Positions 5,639 through 11,323 of a DNA stretch of 39,458 bases are shown here, in pieces (the first letter of the stretch is position 1; each line of letters opens with the position of its first letter). Under the pieces are notes generated by a model. The model was not told the DNA's origin, searched no databases, and saw only the letters and a list, made by a program, of their open reading frames with translations. The translations under genes were made by a program, and so were the position numbers. This DNA comes from a virus (taxonomy: Duplodnaviria > Heunggongvirae > Uroviricota > Caudoviricetes): IMG/VR virus record IMGVR_UViG_2698536397_000026; one strand, 5' to 3'.

Positions 5639-5932
5639 ATGAGCAAAGTACGCGTTATTTTTGAATTTAAGCATGTTTCGCATGACGAAAAACCGGCAGG
5701 CAATGACTGTGTTGAAGTGCATGAAAAGATTGGTGTGGATGTAAAAACAGAACGTGATACGAATAACAGGCCGACGTCACTCTGTGACGTTTATGCAAGT
5801 ATTCTCCAGTATCACAGTCCTGAAATTATTCAGTTTCTCTCAGCGGAATTTCAGGCATCTGTACAGGCTTTTGGGGCGGATGCCATCATTAAACGCCACC
5901 GCGTGCATAAAGCATCAGGCACACTGCAATAA
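5639..5932 (+). CDS. hypothetical early protein, paralog 2 (97 aa)
   Basis: N-terminus MSKVRVIFEFKHVSH; RBS AGGGG; start at ATG 5639 (track start 5612). Confidence 0.55.
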   Translation: MSKVRVIFEFKHVSHDEKPAGNDCVEVHEKIGVDVKTERDTNNRPTSLCDVYASILQYHSPEIIQFLSAEFQASVQAFGADAIIKRHRVHKASGTLQ

Positions 5933-5943
5933 GGAAAAACAAA

Positions 5944-6474
5944 ATGGCTAAACGTGTTACAAAATTAAAGGCCGCAGCCGAGGCTGCACCGCAGACCCGC
6001 GAAGAAGTCAGCCGCGATATCCGTACCCTGGGCGATATTCAGCGAGAGGCGCTGCGGCTGGAAACGGCGATGAATGATGAAGTGGCAGAAATCACCGCCC
6101 GTTATACGCCGCAGATTGAAAACCTTAAAAAAGAAATCAAAGTGCTTTTTAAGGGGATTCAGGACTGGTGCAAAACCAACCGCGATGAGCTGACGAACGG
6201 CGGCAAAACCAAAACAGCCAATCTGACCACCGGAACAGTGTCATGGCGGCTGGGAAATCCATCATGCAGCGTCAGCCGTGATGTGGAAGGTGTGATTGAA
6301 ATGCTGCGCCGTATGGGGCTTGAGCGATTCATCCGCACGAAAGAGGAAGTGAACAAGGAAGCGGTCCTGGCGGAGCCGGATGCAGTGAAAGGCATTGCCG
6401 GTATTAAGGTGAATAAAGGCGCTGAAAGTTTTTATGTCGAGCCTTTTGAACAGGACGCCGGACTGAATAAATAA
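5944..6474 (+). CDS. gam: Gam-like host-nuclease inhibitor (Mu Gam / Ku-like DNA end binding)
   Basis: 176 aa; MAKRVTKLKAAAEAAPQ... with TANLTTGTVSWR and FIRTKEEVNKEA segments resembling Mu Gam as I recall it; located in early region. Confidence 0.7.
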   Translation: MAKRVTKLKAAAEAAPQTREEVSRDIRTLGDIQREALRLETAMNDEVAEITARYTPQIENLKKEIKVLFKGIQDWCKTNRDELTNGGKTKTANLTTGTVSWRLGNPSCSVSRDVEGVIEMLRRMGLERFIRTKEEVNKEAVLAEPDAVKGIAGIKVNKGAESFYVEPFEQDAGLNK

Positions 6475-6571
6475 CACCGCATTAAATCTTTAAATATCAC
6501 ATCGTTTTAAGTATGGCGCTCGCGTCAGGGGACTGCCTGCGCCTGTAAACTGAAAATAAGGAACAGGATAT

Positions 6572-7114
6572 ATGGCATATTTTTATTTCAAATTAGACCG
6601 TGTGCAGACAAATAAATATTTCACCAAATATCAACAGACTGTTTTACCGCTACGCAACAGTATTCTTCGGGCATTACTGAAAAATACAGGCGCTGCCGGA
6701 TTGCGCTTAAAGCCGTTTGCCATGGACGTAATCAGTGAGTTTTATTTTTCTGGTGCTCTGCCTGCGGGCTGGCGTAAGCGCGATGATGTGGCTTTTATCG
6801 GGGACGGACCGTGCTTTATTGCCAGACCTGATGAGTCATGCCCTGAAGGACCGGCGATTGCCGCAATGATTGAAGCCGCTGAACGCGAGTTAAGAAAGCG
6901 TCCTGATTTCCTTGTCTGGCTCTGTGAAAAGCTGGGGGTAATGAGAATCCCCTCCATGTTTAACATGGACTCCTGGTGGACCCCGTCGCTCTCCCGTGAT
7001 GCCCTGTGCGTGGTGTTTAAAGTAGGCGCTTATGGCAGGGAAATAAAAGGGGGTATTCCTGAAGAATGCCAGGAGATTAAACATTCTGAATATGTGGCGC
7101 TGACGGAGGAATAA
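6572..7114 (+). CDS. hypothetical early protein (180 aa)
   Basis: ORF with AAGGAACAGG RBS; no recognisable motif. Confidence 0.55.
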   Translation: MAYFYFKLDRVQTNKYFTKYQQTVLPLRNSILRALLKNTGAAGLRLKPFAMDVISEFYFSGALPAGWRKRDDVAFIGDGPCFIARPDESCPEGPAIAAMIEAAERELRKRPDFLVWLCEKLGVMRIPSMFNMDSWWTPSLSRDALCVVFKVGAYGREIKGGIPEECQEIKHSEYVALTEE

Positions 7115-7117
7115 TTC

Positions 7118-7651
7118 ATGATTGATGCAAAAGTGCTTGAAGGGGTTAAAAACTGGCTGAGTATTTACGGGCGTCTGACCTGCGGCATTCTGGCTGAAAA
7201 AATGAATATGCCGCCATCCTCGATGGTTTATTTTCTGCGTGATGCGGTCGATGCCGGGGTGCTGACGGAATGTAACGGTTTTTATGATATTCCGCGTCCC
7301 CGCCCGGTGCAGCCGGTTCGTCGCAAATGCAGCCAGGAAGGTGCGGCTGATGATGTTCAGTGGTGCAGCTTCAGAAAATCCCTGCCGTGGATTGAGGGGC
7401 ATGATATTCCGTCAATGGCGTGGGAATTTGCTCAGGGCGTTCTGACCTGTGAAACCGTTTATGTGGTGGCTGAAGTTGATGAGCAGGCCATGAAAGAAGG
7501 CGTGCCCCAGTTTGTGATGGCGTATATCGACATACGCCTGGGTGTCATTATCTGCGGTTTAAGCGGCTGGAATATCACCTCGCGCGTTCTGCGTTACCTG
7601 ATTGTTGACCGGACGGCCGCGCCTGCCGGGATATCTGCGGAGGTGGCGTAA
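7118..7651 (+). CDS. hypothetical early protein (177 aa), possible winged-helix N-terminus
   Basis: ORF 3 bp after previous stop; N-terminal segment GILAEKMNMPPSSMVYFLRDAVDAGVLTE looks like a DNA-binding helix pair. Confidence 0.5.
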   Translation: MIDAKVLEGVKNWLSIYGRLTCGILAEKMNMPPSSMVYFLRDAVDAGVLTECNGFYDIPRPRPVQPVRRKCSQEGAADDVQWCSFRKSLPWIEGHDIPSMAWEFAQGVLTCETVYVVAEVDEQAMKEGVPQFVMAYIDIRLGVIICGLSGWNITSRVLRYLIVDRTAAPAGISAEVA

Positions 7652-8166
7652 TGTTCTTTAAAACATCAAACCCTTCCGCGCTGGCCGCGTGGCAAAAATA
7701 TCAGCAGGACTGCCAGAAAGTTAAGGATGAGGCAAAACGCCTTGAGGCCGTGCTGAATGTTGCGTGCCGGTCGGTATTTGTATCCGGTATCAGTGGCTTT
7801 TGTTTTAAAGGGCTGCGCTTTATGGATGACAAATATCCTTTTCATCGCGACTTATGGCGAAAACCGACTGCGTCGAATGGCTGGAGCTGCACACCGCGCA
7901 CATCACGTATTCCCAAAGCCCTGCGCGTTGCCTCTGACGAACTTAACAGTCTGTGGCGTGAATATTCGCCCGTCACGTATGCCAGAACCGATGCACTGTT
8001 GTTCTGGCTGGGTATTGATTTCTCGGCAATCATGTTTGGCCCTGTGAAGTGGTTCTGCGTTGACGATGTGATTTACCTTGAGTGCGGCGTAAAACCCGCA
8101 AATCAGAAAATGACCGAAATTCTGTCTGATGAGTTTTATGCTGCTGAAAAGCGAGTCAGGGGGTGA
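7651..8166 (+). CDS. hypothetical early protein (171 aa)
   Basis: ORF overlapping previous stop (TAATG). Confidence 0.5.
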   Translation: MFFKTSNPSALAAWQKYQQDCQKVKDEAKRLEAVLNVACRSVFVSGISGFCFKGLRFMDDKYPFHRDLWRKPTASNGWSCTPRTSRIPKALRVASDELNSLWREYSPVTYARTDALLFWLGIDFSAIMFGPVKWFCVDDVIYLECGVKPANQKMTEILSDEFYAAEKRVRG

Positions 8167-8169
8167 TGT

Positions 8170-8721
8170 ATGATGATTTTACAACCCATGGGGCGAAAAG
8201 GTCAGGCACCTGCTCATGTCCGTGCGTGGACACCTGAAGAAGATGCGCTGCTGATTGCGCTTTATCCATCCACCCCGGTTAAGGATATTGCTGTCAGGGT
8301 AAAAAGAAGTTTCTGGGGTGTACATAACCGGATTGTTTTATTACGCGGTACTTACCCGGAGTTGCTCAAATGCAAACGTCCAAGATTTAAACATGATGAA
8401 GATAAATTTATCCGAAAAAATGCCAGAACGATGACCGGTAAGCAAATAGGAGAATATCTGGGGCGAGACCGGGATTCTGTCCACAATCGGGCGCGATATA
8501 TTGGCGTAAGCATGAAAAAATACGGAGAATTGCTGCCCTTCACCCGTATACCTGACGATGATGTTCATCTTATTCGTGAATTACGGGATGCTGAATCACC
8601 ACGACGTCTTACCTTCCGGGAAATAGGCGAGAAATTTGAATTATCCGAGAGTACGGTGAATTTTATTTATCACCATCGCCGGACTGCCGAGGACGCTGTA
8701 TTACGGGAGTTAACGCCATGA
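8170..8721 (+). CDS. hypothetical early protein with three internal HTH-like repeats (183 aa)
   Basis: Three about 45-aa repeats each beginning with an acidic triplet (EED / DED / DDD) and containing a helix-turn-helix-like segment (two with SVHNR / GVHNR). Confidence 0.5.
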   Translation: MMILQPMGRKGQAPAHVRAWTPEEDALLIALYPSTPVKDIAVRVKRSFWGVHNRIVLLRGTYPELLKCKRPRFKHDEDKFIRKNARTMTGKQIGEYLGRDRDSVHNRARYIGVSMKKYGELLPFTRIPDDDVHLIRELRDAESPRRLTFREIGEKFELSESTVNFIYHHRRTAEDAVLRELTP

Positions 8722-8903
8722 TAAAGAGACTTGTATTTTTCGCAATTTTCGTTCCGGTGTTGGGGGTTGGTTTTATATTTGCGATTACAGGAAACCTGTC
8801 CATGATGCCAGATATTTGGTTCTTTATCAGGATGTCGCTCTTCCTGTTTATTATGAATCTTCTTATCGACATATATATCCGTATTACTGGAAAACATAAA
8901 TGA
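8718..8903 (+). CDS. small membrane peptide (61 aa, two predicted TM helices)
   Basis: ATGA overlaps on both sides; hydrophobic FFAIFVPVLGVGFIFAI and FFIRMSLFLFIMNLLI. Confidence 0.45.
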   Translation: MIKRLVFFAIFVPVLGVGFIFAITGNLSMMPDIWFFIRMSLFLFIMNLLIDIYIRITGKHK

Positions 8904-9274
8904 GAAAAATCACGTCCTTGTCAGAGTTACAGGAGATGAATATGAGTATTGAATTAAGATCGTCTTATGAGTATCGCAAATTTCTTATCGCCGGAGGCAT
9001 GAAACCGGAAGATGTGGAAAAAATCGTTTCTTTTATGGATAAGGAATGTGATAAGCGGGATGTGTCAGAAATTATTATGGATGACATGATTCTGGATTCA
9101 GTCGTGGCGTTAAGTCCGTTATGGATTGTGCATTCTCTTGCGGAAATTGCCAAAGGCACCGATAAACAGGCAGCTGTTGCTGCCCTTCAGACGCTTAATG
9201 AAATGCGTATATCTCCACGCCCGACATTAATACAGATGATTTTGTCCAGTATGGAGGATAAAGCAAATGAATAG
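8900..9274 (+). CDS. hypothetical early protein (124 aa)
   Basis: ORF translationally coupled to neighbours. Confidence 0.5.
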   Translation: MRKITSLSELQEMNMSIELRSSYEYRKFLIAGGMKPEDVEKIVSFMDKECDKRDVSEIIMDDMILDSVVALSPLWIVHSLAEIAKGTDKQAAVAALQTLNEMRISPRPTLIQMILSSMEDKANE

Positions 9275-9464
9275 TCTACCCGCTGGATGGGCGCGCCCTC
9301 TGATGGCTAAGAAGCATCATTTTTTTAAAACTGGCGATAATATCAGTATATGTAGGCGGTGGTTATATCTGGCTCATAATCGCGAGCCGGATACATTTGA
9401 AAGCCCTGATGACTGTGCCGAATGTCGCAGAAGACTGAATAAGGAGAAAGATAATGGACAATAG
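9267..9464 (+). CDS. small Cys-containing protein (65 aa)
   Basis: ORF overlapping neighbours; C-terminal CAEC pair. Confidence 0.4.
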   Translation: MNSLPAGWARPLMAKKHHFFKTGDNISICRRWLYLAHNREPDTFESPDDCAECRRRLNKEKDNGQ

Positions 9465-9750
9465 TTCTCTGTTGTTCTGGTGCTTATATATCACATCCTT
9501 TTTCGGCGCATTTGTTATTACCCGGTGGTTATGTCGAAAAATCATCTGCTTTTTTGATAAAAGACATCCGGTTGAACGGGCGGCTGATGCGCTCATTCAG
9601 CAGGCCATTGTGTTATATAGCGGTGAATTTTTCTGCCGGATAACAACCAGAGATGGCTGGCACATAATGATTATTCCACCAACACACCATGCCCGGTGGG
9701 ATGAGGCAGAAAAGGCTTTCCATGTCCGTAAAAAGGTAAATACGGTATGA
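9454..9750 (+). CDS. hypothetical membrane-anchored early protein (98 aa)
   Basis: N-terminal hydrophobic LLFWCLYITSFFGAFVI; ATGA overlap with gemA. Confidence 0.5.
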   Translation: MDNSSLLFWCLYITSFFGAFVITRWLCRKIICFFDKRHPVERAADALIQQAIVLYSGEFFCRITTRDGWHIMIIPPTHHARWDEAEKAFHVRKKVNTV

Positions 9751-10256
9751 GAGGAAAACTGATATCCGCCATTCATGTGGCAAAGCGCGAGCTTGCCCTG
9801 GATGATGAGACTTATACATCCGCGCTGCTGGCAGCCACCGGCAAAACCAGCTGCCGGGATATGTCACCGGATGAGTTATCCCGCGTGCTGGATGTTTTCA
9901 AAAAACGCGGTTTTAAAGTGCGTCAGAACCCGGTTAACCGGGCCTTAAAACCGGGTACGGTGACCGCCAAAATTCGCGCCATCTGGAAGGTGATGCACCG
10001 GCAGGGCTTTATCTCTGATGGTGCGGAAACCGCCCTTAACCGCTGGGTGAAATCGCAGACGGCCGCGCAAAACGGCGGCGAAGGTGTGGCAAACTGGCAG
10101 TGGCTGGAGCAACACCCCGCCCTGGCCTCAGATGTGCTGGAGCGTCTCAAGCGATGGCACCGCCGCAAAATGCTGGCCGCGATGGGAATGCCCGAACGCA
10201 CGCTGATGGGGTATGACGCCGTTTGCAGGCAGTATGAAAAATCACTTCCCCGTTAA
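9747..10256 (+). CDS. gemA: GemA / Mu gp16-like regulatory protein
   Basis: 169 aa, last gene of early operon; N-terminal IHVAKRELALDDETY...TGKTSCRDMSPDEL pattern typical of GemA family as I recall it. Confidence 0.65.
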   Translation: MRGKLISAIHVAKRELALDDETYTSALLAATGKTSCRDMSPDELSRVLDVFKKRGFKVRQNPVNRALKPGTVTAKIRAIWKVMHRQGFISDGAETALNRWVKSQTAAQNGGEGVANWQWLEQHPALASDVLERLKRWHRRKMLAAMGMPERTLMGYDAVCRQYEKSLPR

Positions 10257-10260
10257 CTCC

Positions 10261-10290
10261 AAATCCCGCCACAACGCGGGATTTTTATTT
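10261..10290 (+). terminator. rho-independent terminator ending the early operon
   Basis: AAATCCCGC-CACAAC-GCGGGATTT hairpin followed by TTTATTTT. Confidence 0.65.
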
Positions 10291-10325
10291 TAAACTTACC
10301 GGGAACGCGAGAACCGGAGGCTGAT

Positions 10326-10751
10326 ATGGCAGAAACTCAGATGAGCATGTTTGGTGGTGACAGTGAGCAACTGCACGCCCTTATCGACCGCCTTGATGAC
10401 ATCCCTGATGATGTTCTCAAAAAGAACTGGCCGCGGACCCTGTCAGAACTGGTTGAAGTCACCGGCGCAGAACTTCAGCGTCAGGGGATTGAGCCGGTAC
10501 TGGCCGGTAAACTGGCACGCAAGGTGGCTGCGGCTCAGGCAGCCTATATGGGCGGACGGGGTTATTACCTGCCGGTCGGGGAATCTCTCTTTGCCGAGCT
10601 GCGAAACAATGAGATATTTTCGCGCTGGGACCGGGGCGAGAAAATTGAATCCCTTCGCCGCCATTACCGGATGTCAGAAACCCAGATTTATACCGTCATA
10701 CGCGAACAGCGCCGTCTGCATCTGGCAAGAACGCAACCGCCACTTTTCTGA
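10326..10751 (+). CDS. Mor/C-family transcriptional activator (middle/late gene activator)
   Basis: 141 aa; C-terminal HTH region and ending ...QPPLF, similar to Mu Mor / C proteins as I recall them; own RBS GGAGG after terminator. Confidence 0.7.
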   Translation: MAETQMSMFGGDSEQLHALIDRLDDIPDDVLKKNWPRTLSELVEVTGAELQRQGIEPVLAGKLARKVAAAQAAYMGGRGYYLPVGESLFAELRNNEIFSRWDRGEKIESLRRHYRMSETQIYTVIREQRRLHLARTQPPLF

Positions 10752-10822
10752 TATTCCGCAAAGCCTGCCGCCTCTCCTTCACCGTTACGCTGACTCAGAG
10801 AACATCATGAGACAGCGTAACA

Positions 10823-11323
10823 ATGCCAAAACTCCCCGCACCACTGCGTAAAAAGCTGATTGCCCTTGTTCTGGCCGGTGCCGGGACGTTCACGATTGCC
10901 ACGCATTACACCGGTTACTGGGAAGGGAAAGAAAACTCCACGTATATCGATCCCACCGGTACACCCACCATCTGTTACGGCCATACCGGCCCGGATGTGA
11001 AACCGGGTATGACCCTGACAGATGAAGAATGCCTGGAACTACTGGAAAAGGACATGAAATGGGCCTTTGCGGCCATTGATCGGCGTGTTCAGGTGCCGCT
11101 TACCCGTGGTCAGACGGTGGCGCTGGCTTCGTGGATCTTCTGGGCCGGTGAAACGAACTTTCGCAACTCCACGCTTCTGCGCCTGATCAATGCCGGGCAG
11201 ATGCCCGCGTCCTGTAAGCAGTATATCCGCTGGATTTATTCAAAGGGGGTGAAACTCCCCGGCCTTGAGGCCCGCCGTTCGGCGGATGAATGGTTATGTC
11301 GCTACGACTTGCCGAAAGTCTGA
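10823..11323 (+). CDS. lys: endolysin, T4-lysozyme-like (GH24), probable signal-anchor-release (SAR) type
   Basis: 166 aa; hydrophobic N-terminus LIALVLAGAGTFTIA followed by YWEGKENSTYIDPTGTPTICYGHTG lysozyme catalytic region. Confidence 0.8.
   Translation: MPKLPAPLRKKLIALVLAGAGTFTIATHYTGYWEGKENSTYIDPTGTPTICYGHTGPDVKPGMTLTDEECLELLEKDMKWAFAAIDRRVQVPLTRGQTVALASWIFWAGETNFRNSTLLRLINAGQMPASCKQYIRWIYSKGVKLPGLEARRSADEWLCRYDLPKV

Follow-up and report, generated by a model that had tools for sequence, protein, structure and literature searches.

The closest characterised relative of the gene described here is gene D5 of phage T5, whose product (gpD5) reportedly binds duplex DNA in a cooperative manner and with no marked sequence preference. 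The RefSeq note in the T5 genome record (NC_005859) calls this early protein DNA-binding, states that replication and late transcription need D5, and assigns it a role in the shutoff of expression; by its title, McCorquodale 1979 (J Virol 29:322, PMC353123) also deals with this protein. D5 is an essential gene of a virulent phage and lies among replication genes. According to a recent preprint (bioRxiv 10.64898/2026.07.11.737809), mass photometry shows a monomer of 26 kDa, expression of the protein on its own is toxic, and it triggers the type IX retron-Kva2; it has a helix-turn-helix (HTH) at which AlphaFold3 predicts binding of the retron msdDNA, and an escaper phage carried D5 W74*. Literature on DRT4/ORF55 and on retron Eco2 does not concern D5.

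The stretch of DNA analysed here (the window, 39,458 nucleotides; IMG/VR record IMGVR_UViG_2698536397_000026) is a 39.5-kb Mu-like prophage of Shiga-toxigenic E. coli. Bases 7000–10500 are 96–97% identical to regions in two Stx-converting phage records, where the matched regions are annotated as ‘inserted Bacteriophage Mu-like phage’. The 552-bp target ORF is present in 232 out of 5426 complete E. coli genomes (~4%). In E. coli O157:H7 PA20 the gene order is HTH protein, Mu transposase, AAA ATPase (MuB), small ORFs and Gam, followed by three hypothetical ORFs, the target, five small ORFs, gp16 (GemA), Mor, lysozyme and head genes. This gene order places the target in the early operon, in the interval from gam to gemA/mor. 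A preliminary description, made from the sequence alone, had proposed an early gene at 8170–8721 with a 183-aa product; the ORF (on the + strand) and its early character, given its place in a Mu-like early operon, were borne out. The gene is already annotated as coding for a DNA-binding protein (‘DNA-binding protein’ is the RefSeq name of the PA20 copy, WP_000973021.1), and its family is catalogued as PHROG 323. The features of the locus are listed below; alignment A1 comprises 28 homologues and A2 is a more diverse set of 31 sequences.

7118–8166 (+): two upstream early ORFs of 177 aa (phrog_1949) and 171 aa (phrog_2314), of unknown function, from a PHROG scan
8157–8162 (+): Shine-Dalgarno-like, purine-rich AGGGGG, 7 nt 5′ of the ATG, read in the sequence
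8170–8721 (+): coding sequence of the 183-aa early protein, a probable D5-like triple-HTH protein, identical to WP_000973021.1 and matching phrog_323 (E 6.3e-59)
8170–8226 (+): N-terminal tail, aa 1–19, consensus M-x-L-K-P-M-G-x-P-G-K-C-P-A-H-x-R-x-W, from alignments A1 and A2
8227–8349 (+): unit 1, aa 20–60, basic Myb/SANT-GcrA-like three-helix HTH (W20-T-P-EED ... GVHNR), from hhalign, AlphaFold2 and profile matches
8386–8508 (+): unit 2, aa 73–113, basic Myb/SANT-GcrA-like three-helix HTH (F73-K-H-DED ... SVHNR), from hhalign against unit 1 and the match to c-Myb R3
8509–8547 (+): linker 2, aa 114–126, conserved (S-x-x-K-x-G-D/E ... T), with K117 and G119 invariant
8548–8682 (+): unit 3, aa 127–171, acidic, diverged HTH (DDDVHLIRELRD ... 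LTFREIGEKF ...), aligning to the third T5 D5 unit
8683–8718 (+): C-terminal helix, aa 172–183 (T-A-E-D-A-V-L-R-E-L-T-P), conserved, from the AlphaFold2 models and conservation

The target lies within a train of abutting early genes on the same strand: the preceding stop codon occupies 8164–8166, just ahead of the ATG at 8170, and the target stop overlaps the start codon of the next ORF in an ATGA at 8718. A promoter and terminator consensus scan of bases 5900–10900 found no site above shuffled expectation in the gam–gemA train. A strong terminator-like hairpin, with a 9-bp stem (AAATCCCGC/GCGGGATTT) followed by a T-run, is present between gemA and mor at 10261–10284 (+) and is the sole such signal of the early gene train. 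In PHROG scans, the early ORFs next to the target fell only into families of unknown function. The ORF that overlaps the target stop (8718–8903, +; 61 aa) is very hydrophobic, probably forms two membrane helices, and has a weak match to phrog_19804.

The protein had been described as three consecutive repeats of about 45 residues, each opening with an acidic triplet and two of them sharing an SVHNR/GVHNR motif. The triplets (EED 23–25, DED 76–78 and DDD 129–131) and the motifs (GVHNR 50–54 and SVHNR 103–107) were found where expected, and so were three successive HTH units; the length was not, as the period is exactly 53 residues with a helical core of ~40. In Smith-Waterman comparisons of the single sequence against 2000 shuffles, similarity was marginal for units 1 and 2 (p ~0.05) and for units 2 and 3 (p ~0.04) and was not significant for units 1 and 3. 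The internal repeats became clear when alignment A1 was cut into three column blocks and the resulting profiles were compared by hhalign. The strongest relation is that between units 1 and 2 (probability 98.3%, P 2.6e-14, 42 in-register columns), followed by units 2 and 3 (61%, P 8e-5) and units 1 and 3 (8%, P 4e-3). A DNA-level search of bases 8100–8800 revealed just short chance matches and no 159-nt periodicity, indicating that the duplication is ancient rather than recent. The architecture is thus a pair of clear repeats followed, in the same register, by a third HTH that has diverged further. The three modules are not equivalent: units 1 and 2 are basic repeats (pI 10.0 and 10.3; whole protein 9.9), whereas unit 3, which shows the best conservation, is acidic (pI 5.5).

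Predicted structures agree with this anatomy. AlphaFold2 gave a mean pLDDT of 84.7 and a pTM of 0.50 with alignment A1, and 90.5 and 0.69, respectively, with the more diverse A2. Both models contain three three-helix bundles, with helices 22–31/37–44/48–59(61) in the first, 75–84/90–97/101–110 in the second and 129–140/149–156/160–169 in the third, and an additional C-terminal helix at 173–181. The rise of the pTM in the second model may mean that the modules have a defined arrangement relative to one another. The N-terminal tail is modelled with low confidence (pLDDT 51–77), although it is conserved.

We then compared the protein with T5 D5. The target matches phrog_323, ‘transcriptional regulator, D5-like’, at E 6.3e-59 (201 bits; aa 2–182 to profile positions 80–256 of 319), and T5 D5 itself (T5.118, YP_006946.1; NC_005859 67310–68077) matches the same family at E 1.2e-71. 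Direct hhalign comparison of A2 with T5 D5 gave probabilities of 97.2–97.4% and P-values of 1.5e-11 to 3e-11 over 144–164 columns (query 17–171 of 183 to D5 71–232 of 252), while eight shuffled D5 sequences and the reversed one all gave P >= 0.1. The two are collinear across all three HTH units and both linkers. D5 W74, the residue changed in the escaper phage, corresponds to the invariant W20 of the target family. When the same profile was aligned with a c-Myb R1R2R3 sequence, it matched with a probability of 93.8% (P 1.8e-7) over units 1–2 only; thus, D5 is the better and more complete match. We consider it very probable that the target is a DNA-binding triple-HTH protein and a D5 homologue.

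The differences between the two proteins are nevertheless considerable. Identity is just ~24%. T5 D5 has 255 aa and an extra 70-residue N-terminus with no counterpart in the target (the alignment starts at D5 71), while the target family has its own conserved 19-residue N-terminal tail, which is unrelated to and absent from T5 D5. In view of these differences, function may have diverged from that of T5 D5. Both are early phage genes; however, D5 belongs to the replication genes of a virulent phage, whereas the target is an accessory gene in the early operons of temperate prophages (Mu-like and P2-like) and is missing from Mu itself. The target is unlikely to be essential for replication, unlike D5 in T5. 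On a separate point, the first 70 residues of T5 D5 (locus L069, 22311–23075) read HTH-like (…QEQVAAIAAELAAETGKDVTARSVGSKLRKEGF…), so that D5 may have four units.

Other HTH families resemble parts of the protein. The family profile searched against the PDB matched c-Myb R2R3 (1h88_C, E 2.9e-6; residues 18–106 to 60–150), with units 1–2 in register with R2–R3, and Sulfolobus Cbp1 (2lvs, E 2.6e-4); single-sequence phmmer against the PDB gave nothing meaningful. Cbp1 (2LVS) is an archaeal, cellular CRISPR-repeat binder with three imperfect HTH repeats, and its likeness to the target is generic only. Units 1–2 have the tri-helical HTH of the Myb/SANT fold and a tandem spacing like that of R2R3. 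In Pfam the Myb models stay below threshold and cover only aa 19–32 (PF00249, 14.7 versus 24.4 bits; PF13921, 15.0 versus 22.9 bits; E 0.03 over aa 19–31), while several homologues, e.g. P0008, P0019 and P0028, carry precomputed PF00249/PF13921 matches. c-Myb R2R3 (1H88/1MSE) has three tryptophans per repeat, of which the target keeps just the first (W20; F73 or W in unit 2), with I40/A41 and L58 at the second and third positions. Myb R2R3 is, in addition, eukaryotic, whereas the target is a phage protein with a third, non-Myb-like HTH. The protein has a Myb/SANT-like fold without the tryptophan signature, and its most fitting place is among the D5-like (PHROG 323) early DNA-binding proteins.

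The fold of the N-terminal DNA-binding domain of GcrA (PDB 5YIU) is likewise recognisable. We reject membership of the GcrA family, since PF07750 does not match the target at E <= 10 and the protein ends after unit 3: Caulobacter GcrA, which prefers methylated DNA, combines one DNA-binding domain with a C-terminal sigma-70-binding domain, and the latter is missing here. Sigma-70 models also matched below threshold (Sigma70_r4, 19.4 versus 24.1 bits, E 7.8e-4; Sigma70_r4_2, 16.5 versus 25.7 bits; TIGR02937, 14 versus 42.9 bits); membership was rejected, the similarity being limited to region 4 at aa 145–167, with no region 2 or 3. Many homologues (P0001, P0002, P0009–P0017 and others) are called ‘AsnC family protein’ by NCBI. 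The name rests on an HTH_AsnC-type match that is confined to unit 3 (aa 131–163, E 1.1e-4) and scores 22.4 bits against a threshold of 27, and the ligand-binding RAM domain (AsnC_trans_reg) has no match in the target; therefore AsnC/Lrp membership was rejected and the name is a misnomer. Kinship with Mor/C was rejected as well, since hhalign of unit 3 against the phage's own Mor gave a probability of 0.4%. A zinc site at C13/H16/C118 was considered and discarded, as both cysteines are replaced independently in homologues, and the residues here are A13 and Y118. An NCBIfam search of the target produced nothing useful, and literature searches on Myb-like proteins in Mu-like or other prophages, or on phages with GcrA, found nothing relevant.

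A scan of IMG/VR yielded 65 loci, which were sorted by tblastn with marker proteins into two types. The gene occupies an early-operon position in more than 40 Mu-like and ~20 P2-like loci, and lies on the early-operon strand in both. The Mu-like order is MuA-MuB-(gam)-o7118-o7651-target-...-gemA-mor, where o7118 and o7651 are the two upstream ORFs listed above; the P2-like order is int-C | cox ... target ... repA, with Citrobacter phage Shae_phiSM and a Vibrio phage as annotated examples. No neighbour gene common to the two types was detected among these loci by tblastn, and a tblastn search of the phage collection found no target match in Mu itself. In diverged Mu-like examples, MuA is 58–76% and the target 47–53% identical. 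A profile search of genome contigs added two weak, partial loci only. The o7118/o7651 pair is co-conserved with the target in Mu-like prophages down to ~50–65% identity; it is missing from two Mu-like loci whose MuA is 44% identical (L064 and L067) and absent from the P2-like loci. The two ORFs may form a functional module with the target.

Conservation was mapped on A2 as majority fractions. The third helix, which in an HTH of this kind would face the DNA, is the most variable helix of every unit (0.46, 0.36 and 0.37 for units 1, 2 and 3). The most conserved elements are helices 1 and 2 of unit 3 (0.75 and 0.76) and the C-terminal helix (0.65), followed by the N-terminal tail and helix 1 of unit 1 (both 0.63) and linker 2 (0.56). 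W20, K117, G119 and D129 are invariant and R46, R54, R139, R170 and T172 nearly so; R99 is nearly invariant in the narrower A1 set only. The variable helix 3 fits low specificity and phage-specific operators equally well.

A similar pattern separates two E. coli alleles carried by Mu-like prophages, the target (8170–8721) and a homologue in locus L028 (8001–8549), which share 71% protein identity between flanking early genes that are 92–99% identical. Differences concentrate in helix 3 (6 of 15, 6 of 13 and 10 of 13 positions in units 1, 2 and 3) and otherwise fall mostly in unit 2 helix 2 and linker 2, while unit 1 helix 1, unit 3 helix 2 and the C-terminus are identical. Nucleotide identity drops to 54% around gene nt 306–366. 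The divergence also reaches into downstream genes, for which reason ordinary phage mosaic exchange is a sufficient explanation; a change of specificity or an arms race as the source of the helix 3 divergence is conceivable.

Taken together, the target is most likely a multi-HTH duplex-DNA binder that is active early after induction, in transcription or replication. An early promoter would drive its expression once the prophage is induced. The third helices of both basic Myb-like modules would then sit in adjacent major grooves, in the fashion of R2R3, while the acidic module 3 and the C-terminal helix, possibly with the N-terminal tail, would provide a third DNA contact or bind a conserved partner. 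By comparison with T5 D5 genetics, such DNA occupancy would shift the early programme, shutting off or switching transcription and/or supporting phage replication. The protein is probably not very strict about DNA sequence and somewhat toxic to the host. The acidity of unit 3 is unusual for a DNA-contacting module and counts against this reading. As a whole explanation, a protein of the T5 gpD5 type, expressed early and binding duplex DNA through three modules of one chain, seems to us about evenly poised. That it acts, by analogy with D5, as a modulator of transcription or replication through broad DNA occupancy is a possibility that we hold at slightly less than even. The earlier suggestion of a DNA-binding transcription modulator thus stands in so far as T5 gpD5, the closest characterised relative, binds DNA and affects the timing of transcription, but not in its reference to RNA polymerase or to a host target: a role specifically in host transcription is pure conjecture, and the link of T5 D5 to phage DNA replication is just as strong.

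The main competitor of a D5-like, broadly DNA-occupying protein is a sequence-specific transcription factor, in which the three HTHs would read a phage-specific operator of ~15–25 bp, on the phage's own DNA or on that of the host, and the protein would control a small number of promoters, by repression or activation, instead of coating DNA. Myb R2R3, GcrA, Cbp1 and Tc3-type tandem HTHs, all site-specific binders, are among the matches; helix 3 varies between phages, the concentration of substitutions in helix 3 between the 71%-identity alleles of otherwise 92–99% identical prophages is typical of a change of specificity, and the pTM of 0.69 suggests a fixed inter-module geometry. We nonetheless regard this possibility as rather unlikely, since no candidate operator is apparent (the search of bases 8100–8800 found no above-chance repeats in or around the gene), D5 is said to bind duplex DNA non-specifically, and a single family serves Mu-like and P2-like phages, which share no regulatory regions. 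The preliminary description had alternatively suggested that the module binds RNA polymerase. Here the acidic unit 3 would dock on the polymerase or compete with sigma region 4, redirecting host transcription; the weak Sigma70_r4 and Sigma70_r4_2 matches lie on this unit, conservation of the protein surface is highest on its helices 1–2 and on the C-terminal helix, and many sigma-factor chains appear in the whole-chain Foldseek list. Those chains were matched only at E >= 0.2 and TM ~0.2, however, the unit-3-only profile found just generic or designed HTHs in the PDB, and neither sigma region 2 or 3 nor a sigma-interaction domain of the GcrA type is present. Because every sigma-4 similarity is below its Pfam gathering score, RNA polymerase binding is without positive support, and we think it highly improbable.

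Two further explanations were considered. The target sits in the accessory part of early operons, and such regions often hold anti-defence genes; its main role might lie in phage–host conflict, where it would bind nucleic acids of host or competitor systems, for instance in counter-defence or exclusion, and where rapid change in helix 3 would be part of an arms race against sensors of D5-like proteins, retrons among them. The diversification of helix 3 between near-identical prophages would agree with this, as would the sensing of T5 D5 by the type IX retron-Kva2 with an AlphaFold3 contact at the DNA-binding HTH surface (10.64898/2026.07.11.737809). Being sensed by a retron is, however, not a function in itself, and the mosaicism that extends into downstream genes explains the allelic divergence. 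PADLOC defence models gave just a weak homing-endonuclease HTH match for the target (E 0.008) and none for five neighbour genes; a role in phage–host conflict therefore appears very unlikely. The least credible reading, which we would accept only with great reluctance, is that a homing endonuclease left its DNA-binding tail behind as a separate protein, which plays no part in the phage programme. Mycobacteriophage genes with an HNH endonuclease or methylase annotation do contain regions that match units 1–2, the endonuclease families phrog_1891 and phrog_6156 and the PADLOC ‘HEase’ model are weakly similar, and endonucleases occur among the BFVD fold matches; BFVD matches to uncharacterised phage multi-HTH proteins reach E 1.6e-5. 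Yet a nuclease domain is found neither in the protein nor nearby, and full length and fixed synteny are kept in prophages whose transposase is just 44–76% identical. Conservation of family-specific regions, among them the N-terminal tail, linker 2 and the C-terminal helix, likewise speaks for selection on an autonomous function.

The comparison ties an uncharacterised early gene, which Mu-like prophages of Shiga-toxigenic strains carry in ~4% of complete E. coli genomes, to D5 of T5, a classical protein of undescribed structure. To the existing annotation it adds the three-unit anatomy, an explicit link to T5 D5, the dual Mu-like/P2-like distribution and a conservation map, and it corrects the misleading database name ‘AsnC family protein’. 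Two Myb/GcrA-type repeats with a third HTH amount to a concrete model, in which DNA-binding helices can be told from conserved surfaces. Since T5 D5 has recently been reported to trigger a type IX retron, D5-like proteins of prophages could matter during prophage induction in retron-bearing hosts. A wider generalisation would make D5-like triple-HTH proteins of T5-like, Mu-like and P2-like phages one class of early, DNA-occupying, host-toxic switches, whose helix 3 diversifies under sensors such as type IX retrons that recognise that surface; we consider it improbable, but if it were true, the prophage copy would serve in host takeover and might at the same time set off retrons. Current understanding is not overturned, and the protein is a fairly ordinary member of its family.

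A profile search of 1.84 billion representatives recovered 14,184 proteins at E <= 0.001. Many of these have 300–1100 aa and 3–11 matched stretches, at profile positions ~16–113, with an array repeat that reads ‘WTxEEDxxLxxxYxxxxxxEIAxxLGRSxxSVxxRAxxLGL’. These matches place units 1–2 in a large prokaryotic and phage class of Myb/GcrA-like repeats. Full-length three-unit relatives (~170–196 aa) are fewer and come from E. coli, Salmonella, Citrobacter and Hafniaceae; a unit-3-only profile, run against a set of 5.8 billion proteins, found 8 proteins and no new architectures. The arrays of metagenomic and phage multi-HTH proteins (e.g. from Goslar) are homogeneous, some being fused to helicases or nucleases, whereas the layout of the target family is fixed as 2+1, and its N-terminal tail, linker 2, unit 3 and C-terminal helix are peculiar to it. 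Metagenomic proteins P0035, P0036 and P0039 carry up to 11 matched repeats of the unit 1/2 type, and proteins of this kind appear to form a large, essentially unnamed repeat-protein class. In P0036, an SF2 helicase (ResIII + Helicase_C) is fused to an array of about nine repeats, as counted by eye, which Pfam Myb_DNA-binding matches at E 2e-41.
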